Source of the DNA: Pseudomonadota bacterium | GTDB taxonomy: Bacteria > Pseudomonadota > Alphaproteobacteria > Acetobacterales > Acetobacteraceae | Assembly: GCA_021780035.1 (NCBI GenBank) | Contig: JAJXZO010000075.1 | Coordinates: 11,483-75,482, forward strand | DNA: 64,000 nt | Direction: 5' to 3' | In this document: positions 39,794 to 58,339 of the stretch, piece by piece | Numbering within the stretch: position 1 is the stretch's first letter | Layout of the letters: every line of letters begins with the position of its first letter | Notes under the pieces: generated by a model | What the model was told of the DNA's origin: nothing | Database searches by the model: none | The model's input: the letters and a program-made list of their open reading frames with translations, nothing else | Program-made: the position numbers and the translations under genes

Positions 39794-40032
39794 GGCTCGT
39801 TCCTCCGCCGAATGTTTCGTCCTGCTCGGGGCAATTATCGCGCCGATAACCGCCGAACGAAAGCATCGGGCACCACCTTTGCCCGTTTCAAGCCGCGCGT
39901 CATGCGTCTGGCCGCCATGCAGTCGGCTCGCGCAGATAGCTGGACAATCGGCGGCGGTGCCGCCGCACCGGCGGGCGAAGACGGCAATCCGCGTGGGTGG
40001 CACGCCCGGAAGCTATGCTATGCTCGCCCCCC

Positions 40033-43606: not shown

Positions 43607-43723
43607 CGGCCTGCCGTCCTCGCCTCTGGCTGCGCGCCGCCGCGAAACCGCGCCTTCCCGCGCAGCCAACGCAGTCTAGGCGCCCGCCACCGCCGTCGCA
43701 ACCGGCAGGGCCACAGGCGCCGC

Positions 43724-44428: not shown

Positions 44429-44557
44429 CCGGCGGAACGTTTCGTGCACCCGCCCGATGGATTTGTCCACCATCCCGGGCGGCGGCACCTGGTGCTCGCT
44501 GCCCGCCGCATGCGCGGGAACCATCTCGTCGTCGCTCCGGAGAATATCCGAGCACAA

Positions 44558-44761: not shown

Positions 44762-45643
44762 ATGTCCCAAGAGATTCCGCAGATCGTCACCGGGCACACC
44801 GAGCTTCTGGGGCTGATCGCCTATCCGATCCGCCACTCGAGCTCGCCCAGGATGCACAACCTCGCCCTCGCGAGGCTCGGCCTCGACTACGTCTACCTCG
44901 CCTTCGAGGTCGATGACCGGGAGCTGAAGGGCGCCATCGACGGCATGAAGGCGCTGAAGGCGCTGGGATGGAACGTCTCCATGCCGAACAAGGTGGAAGT
45001 GGTGAAGCATCTCGACAAAATCTCCCCCGCCGTCGAGCTCTGCGGCGCCTGCAACACCGTGGTCAATGACGCCGGCGTGCTCACCGGGCACAACACCGAT
45101 GGCCTCGGCTACATCCTGGCGCTGCGCCAGGTGGGCATGGATATAGCGGGCCGGCGGCTCGTACTGATCGGCGCCGGCGGCGCCGCCGTCGCCATCACCA
45201 CGCAAGCGGCGCTCGACGGGGCGGCGGCGATCGACATCTTCAACCAGCGCGACGCGTTCTTTCCGCAGGCCGAGGCCCTCGCCGGCCGCATCTCCGCCCG
45301 TACCGGCTGCCCGATCGCCGTGCACGACCTTGCCGATACGGGGAACTTCCGCGCCGTCGTCGCCCGCGCCGATATCCTCGGCAACGCATCGAAGATCGGC
45401 TTCAAAGGGGAACTCGAGAGCCTTTCGCCGCTGCCCGATTCCTCGGTGCTGCGGGCGGACCTGTTCGTCAGCGACGTGGTGTACGCGCCGCTGAAAACCA
45501 GGCTGCTCCGCGAGGCCGAGGCAGCCGGCTGCCGCACCATGGGCGGCATCCCGATGATGTTGCACCAAGGGGCGGCGGCGTTCAAAATGTGGACCGGCAA
45601 GGACATGCCGCTCGACTACGTCGAAGAGCACCTGTTTTCGTAG
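44762..45643 (+). CDS. ydiB: Quinate/shikimate dehydrogenase (YdiB type)
   Basis: GLIAYPIRHSSSP, NVSMPNK, NTV, NTDG, GAGGAA, IFNQRDAFF, WTGKDMPLDYV closely track recalled E. coli YdiB. Confidence 0.88.
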   Translation: MSQEIPQIVTGHTELLGLIAYPIRHSSSPRMHNLALARLGLDYVYLAFEVDDRELKGAIDGMKALKALGWNVSMPNKVEVVKHLDKISPAVELCGACNTVVNDAGVLTGHNTDGLGYILALRQVGMDIAGRRLVLIGAGGAAVAITTQAALDGAAAIDIFNQRDAFFPQAEALAGRISARTGCPIAVHDLADTGNFRAVVARADILGNASKIGFKGELESLSPLPDSSVLRADLFVSDVVYAPLKTRLLREAEAAGCRTMGGIPMMLHQGAAAFKMWTGKDMPLDYVEEHLFS

Positions 45644-45690: not shown

Positions 45691-46458
45691 ATGCGAACGG
45701 TTGGCGTGAAGAACGTCGTTCTCGGTGAGGGCAGGCCGAAGATCCTGGTGCCCATCGCCGCCACCACCTCGGCCGACGCCATCGCCGCGGCAGCTCGGCT
45801 CGGCGCCGAGGCCGGCCTCGACATCATCGAGTTCCGCGTCGACTACCTCGACATCGCCTTCGATACGCCGCGCCTGGCCCGCCTCACCCGCACGGTGGCC
45901 GAGGTCGCTCCCGGCAAGCCGCTCCTTGTCACCTTCCGCACCAAGGCGGAAGGCGGGGCGGCGGCGCTCTCCGATGCCGCCTATGCCGAGTTCTATGGCG
46001 CCGTGCTGCGCGAGCGCTCCGCCGACCTCATTGACGTCGAACTGATGCGCGACGAGCGGGTGGTGCGCGGTCTCGTCGCCGCGGCGCATACGGCGGGAGT
46101 GCCAGTGGTGATGTCGAACCACGACTTCGCCGGCACCGCGCCGACGGAAGAACTGGTGGGACGGCTGCGGCGGATGCAGGAACTGGACGCCGACGTCCTC
46201 AAGATTGCCACCATGCCGCAGGACGCGGGCGACGTGCTGAAGCTGCTCTCCGCCACCTGGATCATGCACAGCCAGTACGCCGAGCGGCCGCTGATCACCA
46301 TGGCGATGGCGGGCAAGGGCGTGCTCTCCCGCCTCGCCGGAGAGCTAGTCGGTTCCGCAGCCACCTTCGGCATGGTGGGAACGCCCTCCGCGCCCGGGCA
46401 GATGGCGCTGCCCGATCTGAAGGCGACGCTGGAACTGATCAGCCGTTCGATGAAGTAG
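45691..46458 (+). CDS. aroD: Type I 3-dehydroquinate dehydratase
   Basis: GEGRPKILVP, EFRVD, TFRTKAEGG, SNHDF, KIATMP (Schiff-base Lys), MAGKGVLSRLAGE, SAPGQ. Confidence 0.94.
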   Translation: MRTVGVKNVVLGEGRPKILVPIAATTSADAIAAAARLGAEAGLDIIEFRVDYLDIAFDTPRLARLTRTVAEVAPGKPLLVTFRTKAEGGAAALSDAAYAEFYGAVLRERSADLIDVELMRDERVVRGLVAAAHTAGVPVVMSNHDFAGTAPTEELVGRLRRMQELDADVLKIATMPQDAGDVLKLLSATWIMHSQYAERPLITMAMAGKGVLSRLAGELVGSAATFGMVGTPSAPGQMALPDLKATLELISRSMK

Positions 46459-47374
46459 TGACGCAGGCGTTCGCGCCAGCACCCAGATGCGCGAGCCGGC
46501 CGGGCAGGCGGCGCCCGATCCGCTTTTCCAGCACGAGCGCGAGGTCGGCGAGCTTCCGCCAATCGATGCCGGTGGCCACGCCCATTTCCTCCAGCGCATA
46601 GGCCGCGTCCTCGGCCGCGACGTTGCCTGCTGCCCCCGGGATGAACGGGCAGCCGCCCAGGCCGCCGAGCGCCACATCGAAGATGGTGATGCCCGCTTGC
46701 AGCCCGGCCACCATATTGGCAACGCCCAGCCCCCGCGTGTCGTGCAAATGCAGCGACAGCTTCACCCGCTCCGACACCTCCGCGCGCACGCGGCGGGCGA
46801 GCGCGTCGATCGACTTCGGGTTGCCGAGCCCGGCCGAATCCGCGAGATTGATCTCGTGCGCGCCGAGACGGTCATAGAGCCGGGCGATATCGCACACCAC
46901 GTCGGGGGAGATCGCGCCCTCGTAGGCGCAGCCGAATGCCGACTGGATGCCGCCGCGGGTGACGATGCCCGCGTTCACCGAACCCGAAATCATGTCGCGG
47001 ATCTGCACCATGCTTTCCGCGAGCGTCCGGTTGGTGTTCTTCCGGCTGTGCATCTCGCTCGCCGAGATCGACACGCTGAGGTGCGGAACCTTGCAGGCGA
47101 TGGCGCGCTGGAGCCCCTTCTCGTTCAGCACCAGCGCCGTGTAGGTCACATCGGACCGGCGCTCGAGGCGGCGGAACACCTCGTCGGTATTCGCCATCTG
47201 CGGCACCCACTTCGGATGCACGAACGAACCCACCTGGATGCGGCGCACGCCAGCCGCTTCCATGCCCTTGATGAAACCGATGATCTCCTCGACCGAAAGC
47301 TGCGTCTTTTCGCTTTGCAGCCCGTCGCGCAGGCATTCGTCCTCGATCACGACATTCGGCGGCAACTCGTACAT
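46439..47374 (-). CDS. HMG-CoA lyase family (DRE-TIM metallolyase)
   Basis: LRDGLQSE, SFVHPKWVPQMA, HLHDTRG, GGLGGCPF, GNVAAED. Confidence 0.9.
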   Translation of the reverse strand: MYELPPNVVIEDECLRDGLQSEKTQLSVEEIIGFIKGMEAAGVRRIQVGSFVHPKWVPQMANTDEVFRRLERRSDVTYTALVLNEKGLQRAIACKVPHLSVSISASEMHSRKNTNRTLAESMVQIRDMISGSVNAGIVTRGGIQSAFGCAYEGAISPDVVCDIARLYDRLGAHEINLADSAGLGNPKSIDALARRVRAEVSERVKLSLHLHDTRGLGVANMVAGLQAGITIFDVALGGLGGCPFIPGAAGNVAAEDAAYALEEMGVATGIDWRKLADLALVLEKRIGRRLPGRLAHLGAGANACVTTSSNG

Positions 47375-47414
47375 CGCTGTTCTTCCCATTCTCTCGAAAC
47401 TTCGGCGCACTTCC

Positions 47415-48491
47415 TCAGGAAAGCGAGACGACGCGCCCCGTGGTCGCGGCTTCCCTCACCGCGAGCGTCACCGCCAGCGTCCGGGTGCCATCGCGCGCGT
47501 CGATCAGCGGCTTCGCCTCGCCGCGGACCACGTCGCAGAAGTGGTGCATCTCGTTGGTGAGCGGATCGCTGTTGATTCGAAGCGTCCAGGCGTCCTGCTC
47601 CGCCACGACGGCGCGCTCGGCGTGCAGCGGCGCCCACCATGCCTCCGCCCCACCGTGGCGCCAGAATTCGCCCCGCGGAACGGAAAGCGCTCCTTCCATC
47701 CCGGTAACGAAATAGCAGCTTTCGCCGCTTTTCGGATAGGCCCGATTCTCACCCGAGGTCAGCTCCCAGCTCCAGGGACCGGCCGTCGCGTCCGATAGCG
47801 CGATCGTGCCGACCGCGCCGTTCGCGAAGCGGAGCACGATGCCCACCGTGTCTTCCACCGGGAAGCCGCGCGCGGCCGAAGAGGCCATCGCCTGCACGCT
47901 CTCGATCTCACCGCAGAGGTTGCGCAGGTCGTCGATAACGTGGATCAGGTTGATCAGCACTGGGCCGCCACCCGGCTTGCGCCGCCATTCCCCGACGCCT
48001 TCGAAATAGTCCTGCGGCTTCAGAAACCAGGAGAATGCGTGGACGGCGGTGATCCTGCCGAGACGGCCCGCCTCAATAACAGCTTTCGCCTGTCGCATCA
48101 CCGTACCATGGCGATGGTGGTGCCCGACCAGCACCGCAACGCCCGCCTTCTCCGCAGCGTCGGCGAAGGCACACCCTTCCTCGACCGTGTCGCAGACCGG
48201 CTTTTCCATCAGCATCGGCAGCCCACGTCTCAACAGTTCCATTCCCGACTGGAAATGGAATTGGTTGGGAAGCGCCACGACCACACCGTCCGCCGCAACG
48301 CGGTCTAGCATCGCCGACAGGTCGGGCGCCCACGCGACACCGAGAATGTCCGCCTGTTCCCGTATCTTCGGCACCGGATCGACGATGCCGACCAGATCGG
48401 CGCCGGGCTCGTCGAGAACGCGCCTGATGTGCGCCTGTCCGATCAGTCCGGCCCCGGCGACGACCAGACGCGTCTTTCCCTTGTCGCTCAT
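47415..48491 (-). CDS. Gfo/Idh/MocA oxidoreductase
   Basis: VAGAGLIG, MEKP, VGHHHRH, GGGPVLINLIHVIDD. Confidence 0.9.
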   Translation of the reverse strand: MSDKGKTRLVVAGAGLIGQAHIRRVLDEPGADLVGIVDPVPKIREQADILGVAWAPDLSAMLDRVAADGVVVALPNQFHFQSGMELLRRGLPMLMEKPVCDTVEEGCAFADAAEKAGVAVLVGHHHRHGTVMRQAKAVIEAGRLGRITAVHAFSWFLKPQDYFEGVGEWRRKPGGGPVLINLIHVIDDLRNLCGEIESVQAMASSAARGFPVEDTVGIVLRFANGAVGTIALSDATAGPWSWELTSGENRAYPKSGESCYFVTGMEGALSVPRGEFWRHGGAEAWWAPLHAERAVVAEQDAWTLRINSDPLTNEMHHFCDVVRGEAKPLIDARDGTRTLAVTLAVREAATTGRVVSLS

Positions 48492-48520
48492 TGCCCACTC
48501 CCGTTTCCCGCCCGCGCGCC

Positions 48521-50410
48521 CTAGAGCATGATGGTGGAAATCACCGGGAACGCGGCGATGATCGCCAGTGCGATCACCAGCATGGCGAGAAGCGGCCAGA
48601 TATTGCGCATCGTCTGCTCGGGCGACACTCGGCCGATGGCGCAGGCGCCATAGAAGCCGAGCCCGAACGGTGGCGCGAACAGGCCGATGCCCATCGCCAG
48701 GATGTCCACGATGGCGTAGTGCACGTCGTTGATATGCAGGGCGCGGGCCACCGGGAAAAGCAGCGGCGCCAGCAGCACGATCACGGGCATGCCTTCGAGC
48801 ACGCTCCCCAGAACCACGAACACGACGATCGACAGCGCCATGAAGGGCAGGACACCGCCGGCGTGCGTTATCATCTCGGTCAGCGCGTGCGAGAAACCGG
48901 ACTGGGTCAACGCCCAGGCCATCGCCGTGGCGCAACCGACGATGAGCAGGACCACCCCCGAAAGCGAGGCGGTATCGGCGAGAATCGGGTACATCCGGTC
49001 CCACTGCACCTGCTTCCAGGTGATTAAGCCGATGAGCAGGGCGTAGATGATGCCGATGGTGGACACTTCCGTTGCTGTGGTGATGCCGCCCAGCACGAAC
49101 GTGCGGATGAGGAACGGCAGCGCCAGGCCCGGGAGGGCAAGGATGAACGTGTATCCGATTGTCCGCCATGAGGCGCGGGGGGTGACCGTTCCGCTTCTGC
49201 GCGCCTTCCAGCCGACGTAGATTACCAGCGACAGCGCCGCCACCAGCGCCGGCAGGATGCCGCCGGCAAACAACCCGGCGATGGACACGCCGGCCACCGC
49301 GCCGATGGCGATGAGCACGATGCTCGGCGGAATGGTCTCCGACATGGCGCAGGCGGCCGCCAGAAGCGCCACCATCTTTCCGGGGTCGTTGCCGCGCTTC
49401 CTCATCTCGGGCACCAGAATTGGCGCGACGGCCGCCATATCGGCGATCTTCGAGCCCGAAATGCCGGAGATCAGGAAGATCGCGCCCAGCAACACGTATT
49501 CCAGGCCGCCGCGGACGTGGCCCAGCAGCGCGACGAGGAAGTTGACCATGTTGCGGGCCATTCCCGTCACCTCGATCAGCACGCCGAGGTAGATGAACAG
49601 CGGCACCGCCAGCAGCAGCATGTTGGAAACACCGATGTCGATGCGGTTGAGCATGATCGACAGCGGCGCATGTGTGGAAAAACTGAGGTAGGCCATCGTC
49701 GCGATGCCGAAGGAAAAGGCGATCGGCGTTCCGGAGAAAATGGCGACGAAGACGACCGGCCCGAAGAAGATGGCGAGGCTCGCCGGACCCATGCTCGCCC
49801 ACGTGCTTTGGAACATCCACAGCGGCGCGGCGATAGCGGCGACGGCAATGATCGCGCCGATCAGGTGGGCCGGACGAACCAGCCGCAGCCGGACGACAGC
49901 CATCACCAGCATCAGCCCGAACGAGATCGGCAGCGCGCTCGACCGCCACGAGTCCGGAATCTCGAACTGCGGGGTGAGCATGATGTACTGCTGAATCGTG
50001 TAAATTACGGATTGGTAGGCTATCCCCGCGAGGAATACCACGGAGACCACCTGCGCAAACGCGTTGACCCAGGGCTTCCAGGCTTCCGGCAGCATCTGCA
50101 GCGCAGTCGTCATCCGCATGTGCTCGCTGCGCTGGTAGCCCAGCACGGCGCCGAGCATCGTCAGCCAGATGAACAGGATGATCGCTGTCTCGTCGGTCCA
50201 GAGCGATGGCGAATCGAGCACGTAACGGGTCGTGACACCCCAGAACAGGATGATCACCTCGGCCACCACCAGTATCGCGCCAAGCGCCTCCATCGTCACG
50301 CCGATGTAACGCTCGATTGCGGTCTGGCGCTGGATCTGATGCGCCACCCCGGCGACAGCTTCCGGGGGAATTTCCCCCGGAAGCACGACATCATTGGACT
50401 CGGCAGTCAT
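48521..50410 (-). CDS. TRAP transporter fused DctQ-DctM membrane subunit
   Basis: DETAIILFIWLTMLG...EHMR (DctQ) followed by GISGSKIAD, TIPPSI, TATEVS, PPFGLG (DctM); TGATG overlap with dctP. Confidence 0.9.
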   Translation of the reverse strand: MTAESNDVVLPGEIPPEAVAGVAHQIQRQTAIERYIGVTMEALGAILVVAEVIILFWGVTTRYVLDSPSLWTDETAIILFIWLTMLGAVLGYQRSEHMRMTTALQMLPEAWKPWVNAFAQVVSVVFLAGIAYQSVIYTIQQYIMLTPQFEIPDSWRSSALPISFGLMLVMAVVRLRLVRPAHLIGAIIAVAAIAAPLWMFQSTWASMGPASLAIFFGPVVFVAIFSGTPIAFSFGIATMAYLSFSTHAPLSIMLNRIDIGVSNMLLLAVPLFIYLGVLIEVTGMARNMVNFLVALLGHVRGGLEYVLLGAIFLISGISGSKIADMAAVAPILVPEMRKRGNDPGKMVALLAAACAMSETIPPSIVLIAIGAVAGVSIAGLFAGGILPALVAALSLVIYVGWKARRSGTVTPRASWRTIGYTFILALPGLALPFLIRTFVLGGITTATEVSTIGIIYALLIGLITWKQVQWDRMYPILADTASLSGVVLLIVGCATAMAWALTQSGFSHALTEMITHAGGVLPFMALSIVVFVVLGSVLEGMPVIVLLAPLLFPVARALHINDVHYAIVDILAMGIGLFAPPFGLGFYGACAIGRVSPEQTMRNIWPLLAMLVIALAIIAAFPVISTIML

Positions 50411-51426
50411 CAAGAAAGGGTTCCTACGACCTGCTCGAGCGCACTCCACACCTTATCGCCATACTTCTTGTGCCAATCCTTATAATAAGTCGTGGTTTTC
50501 AGTTTGTCGCGGAAGGACGCCAAGTCCGGCACCGTCACCGCCATTCCCTGGGACTTGAGAAGGTCGGTCGTGTGCTGGTTATCTGCGAGAATGGCGGCCC
50601 GCTCTTCCTTCGCCGCCGCCTCGAAGTTGCGCGCCATGATTTCCTTAATGTCATTCGGCAACTTGGTCCACAACGCCTTATTGGCGATGATCCACCAGTT
50701 GTCCCACATGTGGTTGGTGAGAGCGAGATGCTTCTGCACCTCGTACAGCTTGAAGGTCTCGATCTGCTGCACTGGCCCCTCGGAGCCTTCGGCAACCCCG
50801 GTTTGCAGCGACGTGTAGAGCTCGCTGATATCGACGCTCATCGGCGCCGCTCCCAGGTTCGCCCACAGCGAAGTCCACACCTGCCCGATCGGCAGCCGGA
50901 GCTTCAGATTCTTCACGTCCTTCACGTCCTTCACGACGCGGCGCGTAGTCGTGAGCTGCCTGAAGCCCTGCTCGAAACAAATCGGCTGACAGTAGAAACC
51001 ACCCTTGTCCAGGGCGTCGCGGACGATCGCGCCGAGCGCGCCGTCCATTGCCTTCCACGCCTGCTGGGGATCCTTGAACGCGAAGCCGACCGCGTTGATG
51101 CCGGCCACCGGAACCACATTGGAAAGCGAGCTGCCGCTTTCCATCTGGAAGTCCAGCGCCCCGCTATGAACCTGCATGATCATGTCGAGGTCGCCGCCCA
51201 ATTGCCCCGACGGGTAGGTCTGCAGGTGGATGCGCCCCTTCGATTCCTTGGCCATATTGGCTGCCGTCTTGTCGAGCACCTGAACGGCGATATGGTCCTT
51301 CGGCTGCACCATGCCGATCTTGAAGTTGTACTGGGCGGCCTGCGCCGAGCGACCCGGAATGATAAGTGCCGGCGTCGCCAATGCGGCGACAGTCCCGACT
51401 GTAAACCTACGACGTGTAACGTGCAT
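50410..51426 (-). CDS. TRAP solute-binding protein DctP family, Tat-type signal
   Basis: YPSGQLGGD, GFRQLT, LKLRLP, ELYTSLQTGV, EVQKHLALTNH; N-terminus VTRRRF. Confidence 0.9.
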   Translation of the reverse strand: MHVTRRRFTVGTVAALATPALIIPGRSAQAAQYNFKIGMVQPKDHIAVQVLDKTAANMAKESKGRIHLQTYPSGQLGGDLDMIMQVHSGALDFQMESGSSLSNVVPVAGINAVGFAFKDPQQAWKAMDGALGAIVRDALDKGGFYCQPICFEQGFRQLTTTRRVVKDVKDVKNLKLRLPIGQVWTSLWANLGAAPMSVDISELYTSLQTGVAEGSEGPVQQIETFKLYEVQKHLALTNHMWDNWWIIANKALWTKLPNDIKEIMARNFEAAAKEERAAILADNQHTTDLLKSQGMAVTVPDLASFRDKLKTTTYYKDWHKKYGDKVWSALEQVVGTLS

Positions 51427-51674
51427 GACGTTCTCCCCTGAGTTGGCGATCATTCTCCCTCCCTCATCTCCGGGAGGGCGCTTCCAGCAAAACCGATCTA
51501 TCTCCGCCCAATGCGGATATCTCTGCCTCCATACCGCCACGACCGCATGGCTAGCAGCATAGCTGACAACTGAAAAATACCTTTCCTAATGCTTCCAGTC
51601 AACGGCCGCGGCAGCAAATGATAGCGTTATGACGCGCTTTCGCGCCACCATTGCCGCCCTTCCAATGCGGTTGA

Positions 51675-52418
51675 TCATACGAAAATCCCCCCGTTTACAT
51701 CGAGAACTTCGCCGGTGACCCATCCTGACTCGTCGCTGGCGAGGAACACGGCGGCGTAGGCGATGTCGTCCATCGTCCCCAGGCGGGGTACGCAGGCGTT
51801 GCTCAACAAAACCTTCAGTTTCTCCGGCTCGAGCTGGCTGGTCATCTGTCCGCGCAAAGGACCGGGCGCGATGCTGTTGACCGTAATATTGAAGGTGCCG
51901 AGTTCACGAGCCAGGGTCTGCGTGAGTCCGATCACGCCGGCCTTGGAGGCAGCGTAATCCACTCCGACACCTGGCCGCCCGGTGCGTCCGCCGAGTGACG
52001 AAATATTGATGATATGCCCGGCGCTCCGCGCCTTCATGCCGGGAACGACGGCTTTGCACGCGACGAACGTGCCGGTCAGGTTGATGCCGATCACCTTCTC
52101 CCAGGCGGCGACCGGCAGCTGGTCAATCGGCATGTGGTCGAGGACGCCGGCGCAATTCACAAGGACATCAATGCCGCCGAACAGCTTTTCGGTTTCCGCA
52201 ACAGCCCGTTCCACCGCTTCGAGGTCGCGTACGTCGCCGGTCAGCGCCGTCAGACGCCGCCGCTCGCCGCCCAGGACGTTGGAGACTTTTTGCAGCAGAG
52301 CGGAGTTGACGTCGAAGAGGGCAACCGCCGCACCGTGTTCCAGGAAGCGCCCGGCGATCGCGGCGGCGATCTCGCCGCCGCCGCCGGTCACGAATGCGAC
52401 TTTCCGCTCCAGCCTCAT
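51675..52418 (-). CDS. Short-chain dehydrogenase/reductase
   Basis: VTGGGGEIA, LVNCAG, NISS, YAASK, VNSIAPG, VTGEVLDVNGG. Confidence 0.9.
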   Translation of the reverse strand: MRLERKVAFVTGGGGEIAAAIAGRFLEHGAAVALFDVNSALLQKVSNVLGGERRRLTALTGDVRDLEAVERAVAETEKLFGGIDVLVNCAGVLDHMPIDQLPVAAWEKVIGINLTGTFVACKAVVPGMKARSAGHIINISSLGGRTGRPGVGVDYAASKAGVIGLTQTLARELGTFNITVNSIAPGPLRGQMTSQLEPEKLKVLLSNACVPRLGTMDDIAYAAVFLASDESGWVTGEVLDVNGGIFV

Positions 52419-52521
52419 GGCCTTTACCTCCGTGCAAGATTCGACGATCAGATCGTCCGGAATCTCTCACCCGTCACGCCCGGCGGTGCAAGACCCCGCC
52501 CTGCGTATCGCTCCCTCACGT

Positions 52522-53838
52522 CTATTCGCGGCGCATCTTGATCGCGGCAGCCACTACCACCGACAGCAGTCCGCCGAGCGCCATGAACGCCGCCACCGGC
52601 TGCCACGTGTGGTTCATGTCGAACAGCAGCGTGCCGATGAAGGGCGTGAATCCGCCGAAGATCACGCTCGCCACCTGATAGCCGATGTTGGCACCGCTGT
52701 AGCGGTATTCGGTGCCGAAGAAACCGGTGAACAGCGGCTGCTGCACCGAGTTCACCATATCGTGCGCGATGTTCGCGAGCAGCACCGAGAGGATGACGAT
52801 CCACACCACCGAGCGCGCTTCCATTGCCATGAAGAACGGCCACGTCGCCAGCACGCCGATGATGGCGCCAGTCAGGTACACCCGCTTGTAGCCCACCCTG
52901 TCGGCGAGCCACGCGAAGAACGGCAGTGTGACGCAGCTCACCGCGCCGACCACGAAGCCGACGTTGAGGAACAGCGAGCGCGACATGTGCAGCACGGACA
53001 CCGAATAGTAGAGAGAGAAGGTGGTGACCATGTACATCGCCAGCAGCTCGATGGCGCGCATGGAGATGATGATGAAGAACGCGCCGGGGTGCCGCGTGAG
53101 CGCGACGATGACCGGCGCCTTGATGTGCCGCTCGCCGTGCGCACCCACCTTGGCCACGAACTCTGGCGTCTCTTCCAGGCCGAGCCGGATCCAGAGCGCG
53201 ATGCCGACGAGAACGATGCTGAACAGGAACGGCACGCGCCAGCCCCACGACAGGAAGGCGGCGTTGCTCATCGTCGCGCTCAGCGTCGACATGATGCCGG
53301 TGACGATAATCAGCGCCACGCCGTAGCCCACCTGCACGCCGCTGCTGAAAAAGGCCTTCTTGCCGGAAGGCGCGCTTTCCACGGCCATCAGAGCGGCGCC
53401 GCCCCATTCGCCGCCAACCGCGACCCCCTGCAGGATGCGCAGGAGAACCAGCAGCAGCGGCGCATACCAGCCGATGGATGCGTAGGTCGGCAACAGGCCG
53501 ATGCAGGCCGATGAAACGCCCATCAGGCCGACGGTGATGACCAGCATGGCGCGGCGGCCAACGATATCACCATAGTGGCCGAAGATGATCCCGCCCAGAG
53601 GCCGGAACAGGAAGCCCACGCCGAGAGTGGCGAATGCCGCCAGCGTCCCCAGCGTGGGGTCGTGGCTCGGAAAGAACAGGCCGTTGAACACGACGGCCGC
53701 CATGAAGCCGTAGAGAAGGAAATCGTACCAGTCGACAATGGCACCGACGAAGCTGCCGAGCGCCGCCTTGCGCGAGCGTGCCGAGGCGATTTCCGTCGCA
53801 CCTACCGCTCCCTTCACGATCGCCGCCGTCTCGGACAT
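52522..53838 (-). CDS. shiA: Shikimate transporter ShiA (MFS, MHS family)
   Basis: DWYDFLLYG, FRPLGG, VGGEWGGAAL, KKAFFSSGVQVGYG, EYRYSGA match recalled E. coli ShiA. Confidence 0.85.
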   Translation of the reverse strand: MSETAAIVKGAVGATEIASARSRKAALGSFVGAIVDWYDFLLYGFMAAVVFNGLFFPSHDPTLGTLAAFATLGVGFLFRPLGGIIFGHYGDIVGRRAMLVITVGLMGVSSACIGLLPTYASIGWYAPLLLVLLRILQGVAVGGEWGGAALMAVESAPSGKKAFFSSGVQVGYGVALIIVTGIMSTLSATMSNAAFLSWGWRVPFLFSIVLVGIALWIRLGLEETPEFVAKVGAHGERHIKAPVIVALTRHPGAFFIIISMRAIELLAMYMVTTFSLYYSVSVLHMSRSLFLNVGFVVGAVSCVTLPFFAWLADRVGYKRVYLTGAIIGVLATWPFFMAMEARSVVWIVILSVLLANIAHDMVNSVQQPLFTGFFGTEYRYSGANIGYQVASVIFGGFTPFIGTLLFDMNHTWQPVAAFMALGGLLSVVVAAAIKMRRE

Positions 53839-53914
53839 TTCTTTCTCCCCGTCACTTTGTTCGTTCGTCTCGTCGTGTGGGCCGGCCGATTGCCGGCCGG
53901 CCCGTCCGTCCCTC

Positions 53915-55678
53915 TCAGTCGGTCGCCACGTGGGCAGCCTTTTTTTCTCCCGGCGAGTAGATGTCGAGAATATTCCAGTGCCCCGCCGTTGGTGTCGGGT
54001 TGTTGCGCATGGCGACGTCGATCACGCACGGTCTGCCCGAGGCGATCGCCTTCTCCAGCGCCGGCTTGAAGTCCTCGGCCTTGCGGACGCGCACGCCTTC
54101 CACGCCGTAGGCGCGGGCGATCGCCGCGTAGTCGGGCATGTACTCGTCGCCGGCGTTCGGGAAGGTGGCGCCGTACGTCATCCCGTAGTGGGCCATCTGC
54201 AGCCCGGCGATGGTGCCGAAGGCGTTGTTGTTCATCACCACCCACACCACGGGCACGTTCTCGTCCACCGCGGTGGCGAGCACCGAAGGGTTCTGCCCAA
54301 AGCCGCCGTCGCCCACCAGCGACACCACCACCCGGTCCGGGCAGGCGATCTTGGCACCGAGGGCGGAAGGCGGGCCGAAGCCCATGGTGGCGAGCCCGCA
54401 CGGCGTGAGGAAACTGCCTGGTGTGTAGATGGGAAATTGCTGGCCGACACCGTTCTTGTTCCAGCCGACATCGGTGGTGAGAATGGCGTCGCGCGGCAGC
54501 ACCGCCCGCGTCTCCGCGAGGATGCGCTCCGGCATCATCGGGAAGGAATCGCTTTCCGCCATCGCCTTGTTGCTCGCGCGGAACTCGGCGCGCACCGCGG
54601 CGATCTCGGCTTCCAGCGCCTCGTTCCGGCGCGGCTTGGGATAGATCTCGCGGGCGACGCGGTTCAGCGTCTTCAGCGCCTGCTTCAGGTCCGCCACCGC
54701 GCCGATCTCGGTCGGATAGTTGCGGCCAATCTCGCTCGGGTCAATGTCGATGTGGGCAAGCTTCGTCGGCGGGAAGGCGAAGGTGTATTCCGGCTCCCAG
54801 GAGCTGCTGTCGGCCTCCTTGAAGCGCGTACCGAGCGCCAGCACCCAGTCGGAGGTTCGGGTTTTCTCGTTGATGAACCTGGTGCCCCAGAAGCCGGTCA
54901 TGCCGAGCAGCAGCGGATGGTCGTCGGGCAGCGCGCCCTTGCCCATCAGGCTGTGCGACACGGGGATGCCCATGTGATCAACGAAGGCTTTGAGTTCCTC
55001 CGCCGCCTTCGCCAGTACGATGCCGCCGCCGACGTGGATCACAGGGCGCTTCGCCTCGCCCAGGGCGCGGACGATGGCCACCGCCGCGTCGTGATCGAGA
55101 TCAGGCTTCGCCAAGCTCTTGGTGTTGTGCTGCAGGCGGTCGAACAGCGCCGTGTCCACCTCGCGGGAGAAGATGTCCATCGGCACGTCCACCAGCACCG
55201 GGCCGGGCTGCCCGCTCTCCGCAAGCTGGAAGGCCTTTTCCAGAATCTCGGGAAACAGTTCGGGACGTTCCACCCGCCACGCGCGCTTGACGAACGGGCG
55301 GTAGATCTCGAACTGATCGCCGTCGGTATGCAGATTCACTTCCTGGTGCGGGTGCTTGCCGTAGTAGTGGCTGGGGATGTCGCCTGCGATCACCACCATC
55401 GGGATGCAATCGAGAGCCGCGTTGGCAACGCCCGTCGCCGCGTTGGTCAGCCCCGGCCCGAGATGGGTGAGCAGCACGGATGCCTTGCCGGTCACGCGCG
55501 CATAGCCGTCGGCCGCGTGGGCGGCGATCTGCTCGTGCCGGACGGATACGAAATGAACCTTGCTGTTCGCCATCGCCGACAGTGCTGCGATAACGGTATG
55601 GCCTGTAAGTCCGAAGACGTGCCTGACGCCGCGCCGTTCGAGATAGCGGACCAGTTGGTGAGAGACGAGATCGCGCAT
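53915..55678 (-). CDS. Thiamine-diphosphate-dependent enzyme (acetolactate synthase/IolD/CDH superfamily), substrate unknown
   Basis: RHEQ (catalytic Glu), GPGLTN, GPVLVDVPMD, GTRF, and ThDP motif GDGG...VVMNN. Confidence 0.9.
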   Translation of the reverse strand: MRDLVSHQLVRYLERRGVRHVFGLTGHTVIAALSAMANSKVHFVSVRHEQIAAHAADGYARVTGKASVLLTHLGPGLTNAATGVANAALDCIPMVVIAGDIPSHYYGKHPHQEVNLHTDGDQFEIYRPFVKRAWRVERPELFPEILEKAFQLAESGQPGPVLVDVPMDIFSREVDTALFDRLQHNTKSLAKPDLDHDAAVAIVRALGEAKRPVIHVGGGIVLAKAAEELKAFVDHMGIPVSHSLMGKGALPDDHPLLLGMTGFWGTRFINEKTRTSDWVLALGTRFKEADSSSWEPEYTFAFPPTKLAHIDIDPSEIGRNYPTEIGAVADLKQALKTLNRVAREIYPKPRRNEALEAEIAAVRAEFRASNKAMAESDSFPMMPERILAETRAVLPRDAILTTDVGWNKNGVGQQFPIYTPGSFLTPCGLATMGFGPPSALGAKIACPDRVVVSLVGDGGFGQNPSVLATAVDENVPVVWVVMNNNAFGTIAGLQMAHYGMTYGATFPNAGDEYMPDYAAIARAYGVEGVRVRKAEDFKPALEKAIASGRPCVIDVAMRNNPTPTAGHWNILDIYSPGEKKAAHVATD

Positions 55679-55707
55679 GGTTGCTTTCCTGTTTTCCGTT
55701 TCCTCGC

Positions 55708-57117
55708 CTACTCGATGATCTCGCTCTGGTAGAACTCGCCGAACAATTCGCCATCGGAAGGACGGTCATCAGGGATCGGCCGAGCTACCCAGGTGACGTT
55801 CATGTAGTGCTTGAGCGAGACGTTCTCGTTGGTGATGTTGCCGCCCCAGATGCCGCAACCAAGGCTCGACGTCATCGGCATGCCGTTGTTGAAGGCGCCG
55901 GCGTTCGCCTTCGACTGGGGCTGGCGCACCATCATGCGGCTGACCGGAGCGACCAGCGCCAGGCGGTGGATGTGGTCATCGTTGAACGAGTAGATGCCGC
56001 AGGAATGGCCCTTGCCGCCGACCTCGTAGATGCCGCGCACCATCTCGAGCGCCTGGTCGAAATCCCTGTACTTGTAGATGGCGAGCAGCGTCGTCAGCTT
56101 TTCGCTGGAGAAGCGGTGTGCGAGACCGATGTCCTGCTGCTTGACGATGAGGAACTTGCGGTCGTCGGGGATGGAGAAGCCCGCCACTTTCGCCACCACC
56201 TGCGGCGCACGCGCTACCGTCTCGATAGTGCGGTGACCCTCGGCGTCCCACATCGCCGCTTCCAGCTTCGCCTTCTCCGCATCGGAGGCGAGATAACCGC
56301 CCTCGGCCTGCAACTGCGCGAGGAACGCGTCGTAGATTGATTCGTGGACGATGAGGTTGCCGTCGGCCGAGCAGCCGGAACCGAAGTCCGACGTCTTGCT
56401 GGTGCGCGTGTTGCGCGCCGCTTCCTCGATGTTCGCGGTCTCGTCGATCACCATCGTCGAGTTGCCCGCCCCCACGCCGTAGGCCGGCTTTCCGGAGCTG
56501 TAGGCGGCCCGCACCATCGGCTGGCCGCCGGTGGCCATGGTGAGGTCGCAGATCGACATCAGCTCCTGCGTGAGCGGAATACTCGGCTTCTCGATGACCT
56601 GGAACAGGTCCGCGGGCGCGCCCTGCCGCCTCAGCGCCTCGCGCATGACGCGCACCACCTCGCCCGTGGTCTTCTTCGCGCGGGGATGCGGCGAGAAGAT
56701 CACCGAATCCTTGCACTTGAGCGCGTAGATGCCCGTTACCGGCGGCGTCTGTTCGGGGTTGGTGGTGGGGATCAGCGAGGCGATCACGCCGGCGGGCTTC
56801 GCGTATTTGGTAATTCCCTTCTGGGGAATCTCTTCGATCACGCCCATGCTCTTCTGGCGCAGCGCGTCGCGCAGCACGCCGATGATCTTGAACCTCTTGC
56901 TCACGCGGCCGACGCGGTCGCCAAGCTCCGTCTCGTCCACCGCCATGTTGGCGATGCGGGTCATGTGCTTCTCGTTCGCCGTCGCCCAGGCCAGCGCCTG
57001 GCACAGCCGGTCGATCTTCGCCTGGTCGTAGTCCGCGATCTCCGCCATGGCGGCGCGGGCGTTGGCCACCAGGGTCCGCACGTAGGCTCGCTGTTCGTCG
57101 GTCAAGGGAGATGCCAT
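55708..57117 (-). CDS. CoA-acylating aldehyde dehydrogenase (EutE/AdhE-N/SauS family)
   Basis: PAGVIASLIPTTNP, FSPHPRA, ATGGQPMVRAAYSSGKPAYGVGAGN, SGCSADG, SSEKL, SSLGCGIWGGNIT. Confidence 0.9.
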   Translation of the reverse strand: MASPLTDEQRAYVRTLVANARAAMAEIADYDQAKIDRLCQALAWATANEKHMTRIANMAVDETELGDRVGRVSKRFKIIGVLRDALRQKSMGVIEEIPQKGITKYAKPAGVIASLIPTTNPEQTPPVTGIYALKCKDSVIFSPHPRAKKTTGEVVRVMREALRRQGAPADLFQVIEKPSIPLTQELMSICDLTMATGGQPMVRAAYSSGKPAYGVGAGNSTMVIDETANIEEAARNTRTSKTSDFGSGCSADGNLIVHESIYDAFLAQLQAEGGYLASDAEKAKLEAAMWDAEGHRTIETVARAPQVVAKVAGFSIPDDRKFLIVKQQDIGLAHRFSSEKLTTLLAIYKYRDFDQALEMVRGIYEVGGKGHSCGIYSFNDDHIHRLALVAPVSRMMVRQPQSKANAGAFNNGMPMTSSLGCGIWGGNITNENVSLKHYMNVTWVARPIPDDRPSDGELFGEFYQSEIIE

Positions 57118-57187
57118 AGGAACCGCCTCGTTTCGTTGACTGTCTACAGGTTACGGAGCGCGGACAGCCGGGCCCCGCCGCCGCGGG

Positions 57188-58027
57188 TCAGGCCCGCAGC
57201 AACGCATCCTCCGCCCGCGGGTGGCGCCCGAAATAGCGCTTCGCCGCCTGCACGCAGCGCCGCGCGTGCTCCTCGTAGCCGAACTCTGCCACCCTCTCGT
57301 CGTTGGGCAGCTCGATCGAATAGGGAATGCGCGGCATGCGGTTGAGATAGGCGGCAAGGTCGATGCCTCCCTCCCCTGGATACAGCCGCGCGCTGCGGGC
57401 GATGGCGATCATGTCCTCGGTCGTTTCCGGAACTTCCGCCGGCGCGTCGCACAGATGCGCGAAGTGGAACCACTCGCGCGGGATGGCGTCGAGTTCCTCG
57501 GGGCGCACGCGCGAGTAAGCCAGGTAGAGCGTATCCACCATGATGCCGCAGTTCTCCCGCGCCGCCTCGCGCAGGACGGAAACGGCGGCGCCGAGGCCGG
57601 TGACGCCGGAGAAGCTCGGAAACTCGAAATCCACCGTCAACCCCAGCGGTTTCGCCAGATCGCACAGCGCCGCGTAGGTATCGACGACGAAGGCGCGGTC
57701 GTTGGTCCAGGCGCTGCTGATGATGCGCCGCGCGCCCAGTTCGGCGGCCACCTCGAAGGCCGGCAGATAGGTTCGCGCATCGAGGCCGTCGACGATCCGC
57801 GCGAGTTCCACGTCGTGTATGCCGATCCCGGTCTCGTCCAGGGCGCGCTTCAGGTCGCGCTTCAGCGCCTTGTCCTCGGCGACCGCGTAGCGCGGCTCGC
57901 CGGCAGAGCCGATGGGAATGAAGCGGGGGCTGATGAAATCGTAGCCGGCGCGCCGGGCCTTGCGCGCCATCTCCGCCGGCGGCACGCCAAGCACGGTCAG
58001 GTGAGCGAGGGAGTACTGCTGGGCCAT
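57188..58027 (-). CDS. Xylose-isomerase-like TIM-barrel protein (sugar phosphate isomerase/epimerase family)
   Basis: SLAHLTVL, DFEF, VDTLY, HLCDA, RLYPGEG, SIELP. Confidence 0.85.
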   Translation of the reverse strand: MAQQYSLAHLTVLGVPPAEMARKARRAGYDFISPRFIPIGSAGEPRYAVAEDKALKRDLKRALDETGIGIHDVELARIVDGLDARTYLPAFEVAAELGARRIISSAWTNDRAFVVDTYAALCDLAKPLGLTVDFEFPSFSGVTGLGAAVSVLREAARENCGIMVDTLYLAYSRVRPEELDAIPREWFHFAHLCDAPAEVPETTEDMIAIARSARLYPGEGGIDLAAYLNRMPRIPYSIELPNDERVAEFGYEEHARRCVQAAKRYFGRHPRAEDALLRA

Positions 58028-58322: not shown

Positions 58323-58339
58323 AAAATATCTGAGATTTT
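58323..58339. promoter_or_regulatory. Candidate operator, near-copy of the 44558-44580 motif
   Basis: AAAATATCTGAGATTTT; its reverse complement AAAATCTCAGATATTTT aligns with GAAATCTCAAATGATTTT at 44560. Confidence 0.4.

Follow-up and report, generated by a model that had tools for sequence, protein, structure and literature searches.

A conserved gene core beside quinate and shikimate genes suggests a catabolic route that bypasses the aromatic ring

Gene content of the locus

The window analysed here, 64,000 nucleotides in all, comes from a mine-drainage MAG. Using GC3-based gene calling, start-codon inspection and Pfam/NCBIfam scans, we identified nine same-direction genes on the minus strand at 46439–58027, beside ydiB-aroD. 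The calls agree with the public record GCA_027353105.1 (contig DAIEHZ010000043.1) and bear out the co-oriented run described in an earlier note on this DNA. That note had put the gaps mostly at 100 nt or less, and six of the eight are: in gene order they measure 70, 29, 76, 103, 221, 0, 29 and 40 nt. The 221-nt gap separates the SDR gene from dctP and holds a sigma70-like match.

The first gene (57188–58027) encodes a xylose-isomerase-like TIM barrel of 279 aa (AP_endonuc_2, Pfam PF01261, 40.9 bits). Its family profile matches IolI (1I60), Lmo2234 and the N-terminal domain of QuiC1, and a Foldseek search with its AlphaFold model (pLDDT 95) returned 2G0W, 1I60 and 5HMQ as best hits (TM 0.75–0.79). 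The metal tetrad E135, D165, H191 and E239 does not vary in 30 homologues; position 168 is Tyr in the window and His in most relatives, IolI and QuiC1. The second gene (55708–57117) encodes a CoA-acylating aldehyde dehydrogenase (ALDH) of the EutE/AdhE-N/SauS type (469 aa, by profile and PDB matches), with acetylating acetaldehyde dehydrogenase 5J78 and acylating succinate-semialdehyde dehydrogenase 8CEI as top PDB matches. It scores 474 bits on the NCBIfam SauS model, under the cutoff of 600, and its catalytic Cys motif SDFGSGCSADGN is unchanged in 66 orthologues.

The third gene (53915–55678) encodes a ThDP-dependent enzyme of 587 aa with three TPP domains, in an AHAS-like clade. It falls under the family cutoffs for AHAS (430 vs 538 bits), Gcl (323 vs 791) and Xsc (319 vs 620); its best PDB matches are BbmA and AHAS (~290 bits), with CDH at 176 bits. 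Its catalytic Glu (RHEQ) and GDG...NN motif are invariant. The earlier note had cited IolD and CDH as precedents; the protein is an orthologue of neither. The ninth gene (46439–47374) encodes an HMG-CoA-lyase-like (HMGL-like) DRE-TIM lyase of 311 aa (NCBIfam PRK05692, 301.5 bits, cutoff 246; PDB 1YDO, 224 bits) that retains the motifs RDG, HxH and GGCP...GN. The ALDH, HMGL-like and ThDP proteins thus all keep their catalytic residues.

Between the ThDP and lyase genes lie genes for transport and accessory functions. A 438-aa MFS protein (52522–53838) is a ShiA-type shikimate/H+ symporter, scoring 647.7 bits on the equivalog model NF007414 for the shikimate transporter (cutoff 538). It is followed by a short-chain dehydrogenase/reductase (SDR) of 247 aa (51675–52418; Pfam adh_short_C2, 201 bits), an accessory protein of unknown function. 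A TRAP solute-binding protein DctP (50410–51453, 347 aa; Pfam DctP, 207 bits) has an unknown ligand, and its top PDB match, 4OAN (282 bits), is an uncharacterised structural-genomics protein. The start of the gene for fused membrane subunits DctQ-DctM (48521–50410, 629 aa; Pfam DctQ and DctM) overlaps the dctP stop. The eighth gene (47415–48491) encodes a Gfo/Idh/MocA oxidoreductase of 358 aa (Pfam GFO_IDH_MocA domains), far short of the IolG model (121 bits, cutoff 355); we regard it as accessory and possibly an alternative cyclitol dehydrogenase.

On the plus strand, converging on the HMGL-like gene, are a YdiB/AroE-family quinate/shikimate dehydrogenase (44762–45643, 293 aa; Pfam Shikimate_dh_N and SDH_C) and a type I 3-dehydroquinate dehydratase, AroD (45691–46458; TIGR01093, 214.5 bits, cutoff 139.3). 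AroD interconverts dehydroquinate and dehydroshikimate. The YdiB-like protein scores 316 bits on the NCBIfam quinate/shikimate dehydrogenase model (cutoff 349) and 388 on the shikimate dehydrogenase model (cutoff 431). Divergent from this pair, on the minus strand, is a candidate regulator of the locus from the GntR/FCD family (43724–44524; Pfam GntR and FCD; 266 aa in the public record); GntR/FCD regulators also flank the cluster in loci L081 and L083 and in Acidimicrobiia. The 10-mer AATATCYGAG has only two exact copies in the window, both on the plus strand. One, AATATCCGAG (44543–44552), lies upstream of gntR, where it overlaps a sigma70-like match, and is a candidate operator, found post hoc; the other, AATATCTGAG (58325–58334), lies between the TIM-barrel gene and mutS, 298 nt upstream of the TIM-barrel start, and the same 10-mer as AATATCTGAG occurs just upstream of an HMGL-first operon in L001.

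Farther out, a 642-aa QuiC1-like protein joins a TIM and an HPPD-like domain (41741–43669, minus strand). The earlier note had called it degenerate, which is partly right. Its ORF is in fact intact and matches P. putida QuiC1 over the full length (PDB 5HMQ, 535 bits), yet its NCBIfam QuiC score (595) is under the cutoff of 1200, and two of the fold's four metal-ligand positions are substituted (E134Q, D165N). In related loci, the majority of QuiC-like genes retain E and D there. Among the GC3-supported ORFs of the window we found no protocatechuate dioxygenase domain (Dioxygenase_C, LigB), as the note had stated; this absence and the two substitutions count in favour of a bypass.

Conservation of the core across bacterial phyla

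We fetched ThDP-enzyme orthologues (66–81% identical) from 80 species-level genomes and counted neighbours within 10 kb. Members of the ThDP family from Alpha-, Beta-, Gamma- and Deltaproteobacteria, Actinomycetota, Planctomycetota, Bacillota and Eremiobacterota share 66–90% identity. ALDH genes accompany the fetched orthologues in 68 loci and TIM-barrel genes in 62, and the three form a conserved core. A dehydroquinase, shikimate-dehydrogenase-family (SDH) or QuiC gene lies within 10 kb in 65 of the 80 (type I or II dehydroquinase in 42, SDH in 33, QuiC in 30), and 51 of the 57 loci of at least 15 kb have at least one shikimate-type gene. At least 65 bacterial species, representing six phyla or more, thus have the core beside quinate/shikimate genes. 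The earlier note had proposed this neighbourhood check of the ThDP and ALDH proteins, with homologous clusters lacking shikimate-related genes as a refutation; the check came out positive.

Two unrelated families of acyl-CoA lyase genes divide these loci. An HMGL-like gene is present in 19 of 80 and a short citrate-synthase-family 'citryl-CoA lyase' gene in 47 (437–453 bits on NF004864, cutoff 261), the latter directly upstream of the ThDP gene and nearly always abutting it. Only one locus has both, making the two almost mutually exclusive; 15 loci, seven of them on short contigs, have neither within 10 kb. This displacement favours a citryl- or homocitryl-CoA-like intermediate. It also gives independent support to the last step suggested in the earlier note, splitting of a citryl/HMG-CoA-like thioester to acetyl-CoA and a 2-oxoacid, although the chemistry is inferred. 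Gene comparison thus shows the trio travelling, in many phyla, with predicted quinate/shikimate dehydrogenases, dehydroquinases and one of these two lyases.

The remaining genes of the window are less constant. ShiA-like genes are rare (3/80), with an unchanged position in close relatives L085 and L090; L090 also has a DctP orthologue (68%) and the matching order TIM-ALDH-ThDP-MFS-DctP. In L089 and L091 an SDR accompanies the orthologous TRAP genes. Gfo/Idh/MocA relatives occur in 11–21 of the 80 loci and also lie within operons of Geopsychrobacteraceae and Fodinisporobacter. Of the run that had been read as one pathway, the TIM/ALDH/ThDP core therefore stands, and shiA, the SDR, the TRAP transporter and the Gfo/Idh/MocA gene are only accessory. 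Because TRAP, SDR and Gfo/Idh/MocA genes do recur with the module, the DctP ligand is unknown and its nearest PDB relative uncharacterised, the trio and lyase might instead degrade another hydroaromatic or cyclitol carboxylate, for instance the compound bound by the TRAP system, or an ester or other derivative of quinate, with the shikimate-type genes only feeding in or sharing intermediates. SDH-family paralogues have varied substrates. We think this improbable: the window operon includes a ShiA equivalog, and the minimal operons of Ca. Formimonas warabiya (SDH-HMGL-ALDH-AroD-ThDP-TIM), Shumkonia (ALDH-ThDP-HMGL-TIM-AroQ-SDH) and Azoarcus consist only of SDH, dehydroquinase, TIM barrel, ThDP enzyme, ALDH or CoA-transferase, and lyase. 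A family III CoA-transferase replaces the ALDH in seven loci and in Azoarcus sp. KH32C.

Ca. Formimonas warabiya is a strict anaerobe, as is Lucifera butyrica, whose compact cluster comprises HMGL, a four-subunit Kor/Oor-like oxidoreductase, MFS, AroD, Zn-ADH, ThDP, TIM and ALDH genes, the Kor-like 2-oxoacid:ferredoxin oxidoreductase adjoining HMGL. The oxygen independence that the earlier note inferred is thereby supported. Strict anaerobes cannot use dioxygenases, which weighs against catabolism through protocatechuate alone, with QuiC encoded here and dioxygenases elsewhere in the genome, the ThDP enzyme and ALDH an unrelated AHAS/Xsc-SauS-type module, the HMGL an ordinary leucine-pathway enzyme and the adjacency due to chance. 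The intact QuiC1-like ORF is compatible with that account; SauS is the best NCBIfam model for the ALDH, Xsc is among the ThDP matches, and the MAG is incomplete, so that pca genes could lie elsewhere. Yet AHAS, Xsc and SauS scores are all below cutoff, an ilvN-like small subunit, pta and a sulfite-exporter partner are missing (just 4 of the 80 loci contain a TauE-like gene), the window QuiC1-like protein carries its two substitutions, and shikimate-gene synteny in 65 loci across phyla cannot be chance. We consider this account very improbable.

Proposed catabolic route

We judge it probable, though far from certain, that the locus encodes a catabolic route for the plant acids quinate and shikimate that bypasses the aromatic ring; the gene association is observed, the chemistry inferred, and no enzyme has been assayed. 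The route is most likely oxygen-independent and previously undescribed; our literature searches found no description of such a pathway. Gene neighbourhoods support the non-aromatic breakdown proposed earlier, while the substrates and the cleaved bond remain inference.

Following this logic, ShiA and the TRAP system would import the substrates, and YdiB would oxidize quinate to 3-dehydroquinate (DHQ). Shikimate would reach DHQ through dehydroshikimate, with AroD working in the hydration direction; no enoyl-CoA hydratase is conserved across the compared loci, and the dehydroquinase therefore plausibly provides the hydration. The TIM barrel, proposed to be a 3-dehydroquinate 4,5-dehydratase acting by IolE/QuiC-like beta-elimination (or alternatively an IolI-like isomerase), would strip the 5-OH of DHQ to give 1-hydroxy-3,4-dioxocyclohexane-1-carboxylate. 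The ThDP enzyme, our candidate for carbocycle C–C cleavage, would hydrolyse C3–C4, as IolD and cyclohexane-1,2-dione hydrolase do on their substrates, to 2-hydroxy-2-(2-oxoethyl)glutarate. This ring-opened aldehyde would be converted by the acylating ALDH to an acyl-CoA, homocitryl-CoA, from which the HMGL-like protein, a proposed homocitryl-CoA (3-carboxy-3-hydroxyacyl-CoA) lyase, would release acetyl-CoA and 2-oxoglutarate. The tertiary C1(OH)(COOH) centre that an HMG-CoA/citryl-CoA-type lyase needs is, we infer, kept only in the DHQ skeleton. The SDR and Gfo/Idh/MocA enzyme may be accessory feeders of unknown specificity.

The same module might act on the same substrates by other chemistry: the ThDP enzyme could be an acyloin lyase cutting C3–C4 of DHQ or an isomer directly, as transketolase or benzaldehyde lyase would, with the TIM barrel an IolI-like isomerase or an open-chain enzyme, or cleavage polarity could be reversed. 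Products would then be acetyl-CoA and a different 2-oxoacid, for example 2-oxoglutarate semialdehyde or 4-hydroxy-2-oxoglutarate. The ThDP enzyme does sit in the AHAS/carboligase-lyase clade, IolI is the best profile match of the TIM barrel, variants with only a CoA-transferase suit a product that already carries a carboxylate at its C3 end, and the Gfo/Idh/MocA enzyme inside several operons could form a dione by oxidation, not dehydration. However, these products are less economical, the Kor-like enzyme beside HMGL in Lucifera best suits 2-oxoglutarate, and the IolE/IolD precedent assigns a role to each core enzyme. We hold such chemistry to be possible but rather unlikely.

Several observations nonetheless count against the dehydration–hydrolysis route that we prefer. 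No biochemical, genetic or expression data stand behind its chemistry, and the TIM barrel is no closer to the dehydratase QuiC1 than to the isomerase IolI, while its Tyr at position 168 sets it apart from both. QuiC-type genes in 30 loci mean that the aromatic branch often coexists. The CoA-transferase-for-ALDH variants and the 15 loci without a nearby lyase are further difficulties, the former unexplained by the model, and the proposed 3,4-dione could spontaneously aromatise to protocatechuate.

Comparison with known systems

The closest sequence and fold relatives of the TIM barrel, IolI and the dehydratase domain of QuiC1, both act on carbocyclic ketones. The ThDP enzyme is nearest to AHAS, glyoxylate carboligase and BbmA, not to IolD or CDH. 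Against our preferred route, ring hydrolysis is not predicted from homology.

Gene content of the window

The G+C content of the window is about 70%, so raw ORF lists were crowded with spurious frames; genes were defined with a GC3 filter, start-codon inspection and Pfam/NCBIfam scans. The nine-gene co-oriented run claimed in the earlier note is real, and reads along the minus strand from 58027 to 46439. In order, it encodes a xylose-isomerase-like TIM barrel (G1, 57188–58027), a EutE/SauS-type CoA-acylating aldehyde dehydrogenase (ALDH; G2, 55708–57117), a ThDP enzyme (G3, 53915–55678), a ShiA equivalog (G4, 52522–53838; NF007414, 647.7 bits against a cutoff of 538), an SDR (G5, 51675–52418), DctP (G6, 50410–51453), a fused DctQM (G7, 48521–50410), a Gfo/Idh/MocA oxidoreductase (G8, 47415–48491) and an HMG-CoA-lyase-like (HMGL-like) protein (G9, 46439–47374; PRK05692, 301.5 bits against a cutoff of 246). 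Successive gaps are 70, 29, 76, 103, 221, 0, 29 and 40 nt.

Convergent on G9 lie genes for a YdiB/AroE-family dehydrogenase (44762–45643) and a type I dehydroquinase (45691–46458; TIGR01093, 214.5 against a cutoff of 139.3). To the left of this pair are a divergent GntR/FCD regulator gene and then a QuiC1-like two-domain gene (41741–43669). As previously proposed, there is no protocatechuate dioxygenase in the window, such a domain being absent from every supported ORF. The gene calls are identical to those of public record GCA_027353105.1, a mine-drainage MAG. A sequencing-run search found the window sequence only in mine-drainage metagenome DNA runs; because all matching runs are DNA, there is no expression evidence for the cluster.

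A plus-strand gene for an AroK-AroB fusion (shikimate kinase plus dehydroquinate synthase; 39997–41727) adjoins the catabolic cluster. The fusion has this position in a Desulfofustis locus too, and AroB-like genes come after the TIM gene in Acidimicrobiia loci; the examples outside the window are at L022:19430–21253 and L027:13899–15080. The arrangement could be coincidental, or could allow imported shikimate to be salvaged for biosynthesis.

The shiA-SDR-TRAP region (48000–54000) has a G+C content of 0.60–0.65 compared with about 0.70 elsewhere, and the 221-nt gap before dctP holds a promoter-like site on the minus strand (51602–51574). The transporter and SDR genes may therefore have been inserted later as a block that brought a separate promoter. 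By far the nearest solved relative of DctP is 4OAN, a structural-genomics TRAP binding protein (282 bits, versus at most 148 for sialic-acid binders), whose ligand density was reportedly modelled as a small 2-hydroxy-2-methyl-3-oxo acid.

A search for shared operators found exactly two copies of the AT-rich 10-mer AATATCYGAG in the 64 kb, where 0.02 were expected. One (44543–44552) lies in the gntR/ydiB intergenic region and overlaps a sigma70-like -10 element, the other (58325–58334) is upstream of G1, and in a Rhodospirillales MAG the motif again precedes the operon (L001:7446–7455). As a candidate GntR operator it is only suggestive, having been picked post hoc.

A conserved trio associated with shikimate-type genes

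Relatives of G3 that are 73–90% identical occur in many metagenomes and genomes, including that of the Firmicute Lucifera butyrica. Scanning one genome per species gave 154 relatives, of which we analysed the best 80 (66–81% identical), counting genes within 10 kb of the ThDP gene and applying the GC3 filter against overlapping spurious ORFs when clustering locus ORFs in high-GC DNA. Hosts include Alpha-, Beta-, Gamma- and Deltaproteobacteria, Actinomycetota, Planctomycetota and Eremiobacterota. An ALDH was present in 68 of the 80 loci, a G1-like TIM barrel in 62, a type I or II dehydroquinase in 42, a shikimate-dehydrogenase family member (SDH) in 33, a two-domain QuiC in 26–30, a TRAP permease in 24, a family III CoA-transferase in 17, Gfo/Idh/MocA in 11 and a ShiA-like gene in 3. 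The core of the cluster is the TIM barrel, ThDP enzyme and ALDH; ShiA, SDR, TRAP and Gfo/Idh/MocA belong to its accessory part, but closer relatives do keep the TRAP system in the same place. Identity between phyla is high for all three core proteins (ThDP 71–74%, ALDH 65–67%, TIM 58–62%), which indicates that the trio is a tightly constrained unit.

Co-occurrence with shikimate genes had been suggested as a check on the ThDP and ALDH neighbourhood, and it was borne out: at least one shikimate-type gene was found in 65/80 loci, and in 51 of the 57 loci of at least 15 kb. There are only a few such genes per genome, so the association cannot be chance.

Gene order varies around the core. The strict anaerobe Ca. 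Formimonas warabiya has MFS ... SDH-HMGL-ALDH-AroD-ThDP-TIM, and Shumkonia mesophila has ALDH-ThDP-HMGL-TIM-AroQ-SDH. In Lucifera butyrica, also a strict anaerobe, AroQ is followed at some distance by HMGL, a four-subunit 2-oxoacid:ferredoxin oxidoreductase, MFS, AroD, Zn-ADH, ThDP, TIM and ALDH; the best models for the oxidoreductase alpha and beta subunits are of the Kor/Oor type (2-oxoglutarate). A plasmid of Azoarcus sp. KH32C carries IclR, then an HPPD-like protein, a QuiC-N-like TIM barrel, CoA-transferase, citryl-CoA lyase, ThDP, SDH and AroD, with generic annotations throughout. Microbacteriaceae have a PQQ-dehydrogenase, then ALDH-CCL-ThDP-TIM-QuiC (CCL, citryl-CoA lyase). The PQQ enzyme, a beta-propeller protein of about 970 aa, is encoded divergently from the ALDH-CCL-ThDP operon (L058:4458–7463 and L063:4644–7553, both minus strand) and has a signal-peptide-like N-terminus; like QuiA, it may oxidize quinate outside the cytoplasm.

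Two unrelated lyase families in the same slot

Only 19 of the 80 loci have an HMGL-like gene together with the ThDP gene. At 47 loci, the ThDP gene is bordered at its 5' end by a gene for a protein of about 280 aa, which matches the C-terminal half of citrate synthase and scores above the cutoffs of NCBIfam models for 'citryl-CoA lyase' (437 and 453 bits against 261; 241 against 212). The two types occur together at one locus only, and 15 loci, 7 of them short contigs, have neither within 10 kb. Both the HMGL-type and the citryl-CoA-lyase families split 3-hydroxy-3-substituted acyl-CoAs into acetyl-CoA and a carbonyl compound. That two unrelated families of known chemistry occupy the same slot is our strongest argument for a pathway through a citryl/HMG-CoA-like thioester, the intermediate postulated in the earlier note and now supported by lyase displacement (19 versus 47 loci). 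Cluster-associated HMGL-like proteins are only 40–50% identical between phyla, and since identity within the trio is higher, the sequences suggest that the lyase was probably recruited more than once.

G9 itself keeps the catalytic motifs RDG, LHLHDTRG and GGCP...GN and meets the sequence criteria of the HMGL subfamily. It is unlikely to be a housekeeping HMG-CoA lyase of the leucine pathway: no liu or MCCase genes lie near it, its conserved context being ThDP, ALDH, TIM and shikimate genes, and this placement beside ThDP, ALDH and TIM recurs in Alpha-, Gamma- and Deltaproteobacteria and in Bacillota.

The ThDP enzyme and aldehyde dehydrogenase

Among NCBIfam models, those for AHAS gave G3 its highest scores, yet no cutoff was reached: TIGR00118 scored 430 versus 538 and the remaining AHAS equivalogs fell far short of theirs, with lower scores for glyoxylate carboligase (323 versus 791) and Xsc (319 versus 620). 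An ordinary AHAS was ruled out by the sub-cutoff score and the lack of an adjacent small subunit: there is no ilvN or ilvH beside G3, whose neighbours are the ALDH and ShiA. IolD was not among the best 25 of 53 NCBIfam matches, and orthology to it was ruled out on these matches. In the PDB, the closest relatives were BbmA and plant AHAS (about 290 bits), with cyclohexane-1,2-dione hydrolase (CDH; 2PGN) at 176. The protein has three TPP domains, and both RHEQ, which holds the catalytic Glu, and GDGGFGQNP...MNN are invariant in the 80 orthologues. Ring hydrolysis of an alicyclic 1,2-dione by G3 is inferred, and there are no assay data.

For G2, the best NCBIfam model was SauS (474 against a cutoff of 600), and PDB matches were to acylating acetaldehyde and succinate-semialdehyde dehydrogenases (5J78, 300 bits; 8CEI, 293 bits). 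Its catalytic Cys, within GSGCSADGN, is invariant, and it meets the criteria for a EutE/AdhE-N-type acylating ALDH. A sulfoacetaldehyde (Xsc/SauS) module was ruled out by the sub-cutoff scores and the lack of sulfonate context; TauE-like genes were found in only 4/80 related loci, compared with shikimate genes in 65/80.

The TIM barrel and the QuiC1-like protein

An AlphaFold model of G1 built from a 30-sequence alignment (pLDDT 95) had TM scores of 0.75–0.79 to 2G0W, 1I60 and 5HMQ. Profile and fold comparisons ranked Lmo2234, IolI (inosose isomerase) and the QuiC1 dehydratase domain first, with IolE lower, and identity to characterized members was only 15–24%. E135, D165, H191 and E239, which form a Glu-Asp-His-Glu metal site, are invariant together with several arginines. 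IolI, IolE and the QuiC1 dehydratase domain act on carbocyclic alpha-hydroxyketones; the activity and substrate of G1 are inferred only, and it could be an isomerase instead of a dehydratase. Residue 168 is Tyr (VDTLYLAY) in the G1 of the window and its closest relatives; IolI, QuiC1 and the majority of the family have His there (DxxH), so the catalytic apparatus may have changed in this subclade.

The earlier note had called the QuiC1 of the window degenerate, which is only partly right. The ORF is intact and matches P. putida QuiC1 (PDB 5HMQ) end to end over residues 3–626 (535 bits), with the full two-domain architecture of TIM and HPPD-like domains in Pfam, which rules out a pseudogene. 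Its score on NF042435 was 595 against a cutoff of 1200, and it has YQAL for YEAL (E134) and LNSFH for LDSFH (D165). From the fold consensus, and from what was reportedly described for QuiC1, we take these to be two of the four metal-ligand positions. Their equivalents in the G1 family are the invariant E135 and D165, and the majority of QuiC-like genes in related loci retain the E and D. As far as sequence can tell, the dehydratase site of the window protein is suspect.

HPPD-like/VOC domains recur with the pathway genes. One is fused to a G1-like TIM barrel in P0256 (672 aa); P0255 (920 aa) and Microbacterium loci encode triple-domain proteins combining QuiC with G1; and free-standing copies lie beside the operon in Shumkonia and Azoarcus (L083:1786–2904 and L088:7964–8788). 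This domain, enigmatic in QuiC1, may have a role in a non-aromatic route.

A proposed route to acetyl-CoA and 2-oxoglutarate

Whereas the gene association, lyase displacement and presence in anaerobes are observed, the reaction chemistry of all five steps is inferred. Quinate would be oxidized by YdiB to 3-dehydroquinate (DHQ), and shikimate would reach DHQ through dehydroshikimate, with AroD/AroQ acting as a hydratase. G1 would then remove the 5-OH of DHQ in the manner of IolE or QuiC to give a 3,4-dione, which G3 would hydrolyse at C3–C4 by analogy with IolD and CDH, yielding 2-hydroxy-2-(2-oxoethyl)glutarate. G2 would convert this to homocitryl-CoA, and G9, or the citryl-CoA-lyase homologue in other loci, would yield acetyl-CoA and 2-oxoglutarate. 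The carbon balance is C7 to C2 plus C5. We infer that the tertiary C1(OH)(COOH) required by such lyases is kept only in the DHQ skeleton. No enoyl-CoA hydratase is conserved in the ThDP loci, and the Kor-like enzyme of Lucifera fits 2-oxoglutarate as a product.

The alternative that the same genes carry out a different cleavage chemistry, or act with a different polarity, is sustained. In seven loci (L011, L012, L015, L016, L024, L030 and L037), a family III CoA-transferase takes the place of the ALDH directly upstream of the citryl-CoA-lyase-like gene, and Azoarcus likewise has a CoA-transferase for the ALDH (L088:9902–11104); nine other loci have both. The CoA-transferase variant requires an acid, not an aldehyde, and is unexplained by the proposed mechanism; a free-acid intermediate is possible. 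Also in favour of different chemistry, the sequence of G3 is neither IolD- nor CDH-like, isomerase activity cannot be set aside for G1, QuiC genes stand alongside the module in 26–30 loci, the 10-kb neighbourhood contains no lyase at some loci, and spontaneous aromatization of the dione is conceivable.

With the thioester route through DHQ as our preferred reading, we regard it as a serious possibility, though still short of probable, that bacteria of at least six phyla, strict anaerobes among them, share an undescribed O2-independent route from quinate and shikimate to acetyl-CoA and 2-oxoglutarate by ThDP-dependent carbocycle opening and homocitryl-CoA, bypassing protocatechuate entirely. 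If so, the AHAS-like ThDP enzymes would include a ring-cleaving branch not recognized before, HMGL-like and citryl-CoA-lyase-like enzymes would gain a new substrate, and the HPPD-like domain would possibly have a role. The hypothesis is directly testable, since culturable carriers were identified (Azoarcus sp. KH32C, Microbacterium spp., Shumkonia mesophila, Lucifera butyrica and Fodinisporobacter ferrooxydans).

Significance and relation to known systems

In soil, litter and the gut, quinate and shikimate rank with the most abundant alicyclic acids of plant origin, and textbook bacterial and fungal catabolism proceeds through protocatechuate and oxygen-dependent ring cleavage. To our knowledge, their mineralization by strict anaerobes is poorly understood, and we know of no enzymology for the fermenting bacteria that Brune and Schink (1992) reportedly found to degrade both compounds. 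A full-text literature search, with subscription-only papers outside its scope, found no description of such a pathway, and all homologues bear generic names. A compact O2-independent route to acetyl-CoA and 2-oxoglutarate would close the gap for anaerobes, assign a function to several large families with merely generic names ('thiamine pyrophosphate-binding protein', 'sugar phosphate isomerase/epimerase' and 'citryl-CoA lyase'), and bring a new C–C cleaving activity into the ThDP toolbox; for engineering, it would give a short path from shikimate-pathway intermediates to central metabolism.

The logic is that of myo-inositol catabolism (IolG/IolE/IolD/IolA), in which a cyclitol is dehydrogenated to a ketone, a xylose-isomerase-like TIM barrel dehydrates the ketone to a 1,2-dione, a ThDP enzyme opens the ring hydrolytically to an aldehyde-acid, and a CoA-acylating ALDH follows. 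In fold, G1 most resembles IolI and the QuiC domain; IolE structures are matched too. Unlike the myo-inositol route, the cluster lacks the isomerase, kinase and aldolase IolB, IolC and IolJ, its G3 is not an IolD orthologue and its G2 is of EutE/SauS rather than IolA type; it ends in a thioester lyase, HMGL-like or citryl-CoA-lyase-like, and its substrate bears a carboxylate and a tertiary alcohol. CDH, from Azoarcus sp. 22Lin, converts an alicyclic 1,2-dione to an oxo-acid by a ring opening that needs no oxygen. It belongs to the same ThDP superfamily as G3 but is distant (176 bits, versus about 290 for AHAS), and stands alone, whereas G3 has the TIM barrel and the acylating ALDH as its partners in a conserved trio.

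In the classical qui/qsu pathway, the dehydroshikimate dehydratase QuiC/QsuB leads to protocatechuate and on to beta-ketoadipate or meta-cleavage, which needs O2-dependent ring dioxygenases. The cluster shares with it a YdiB-like dehydrogenase, AroD/AroQ and a ShiA-type transporter, and often a QuiC-type gene in the locus. Its conserved partners, by contrast, are the ThDP enzyme, ALDH, TIM barrel and lyase, found also in strict anaerobes, and the window has no dioxygenase and a QuiC1-like protein altered at two metal ligands. The lyases compared were HMG-CoA lyase and (R)-citramalyl-CoA lyase, both of the DRE-TIM family, and citryl-CoA lyase, a short homologue of citrate synthase; G9 passes the HMGL model and the alternative gene the CCL models. 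We know of no description of homocitryl-CoA as a substrate for either family. Their context here is quinate/shikimate catabolism, which differs from leucine catabolism, the reductive TCA cycle and the 3-hydroxypropionate bi-cycle; the related known kinds are ThDP-dependent alicyclic ring-opening pathways and hydroaromatic catabolic clusters.
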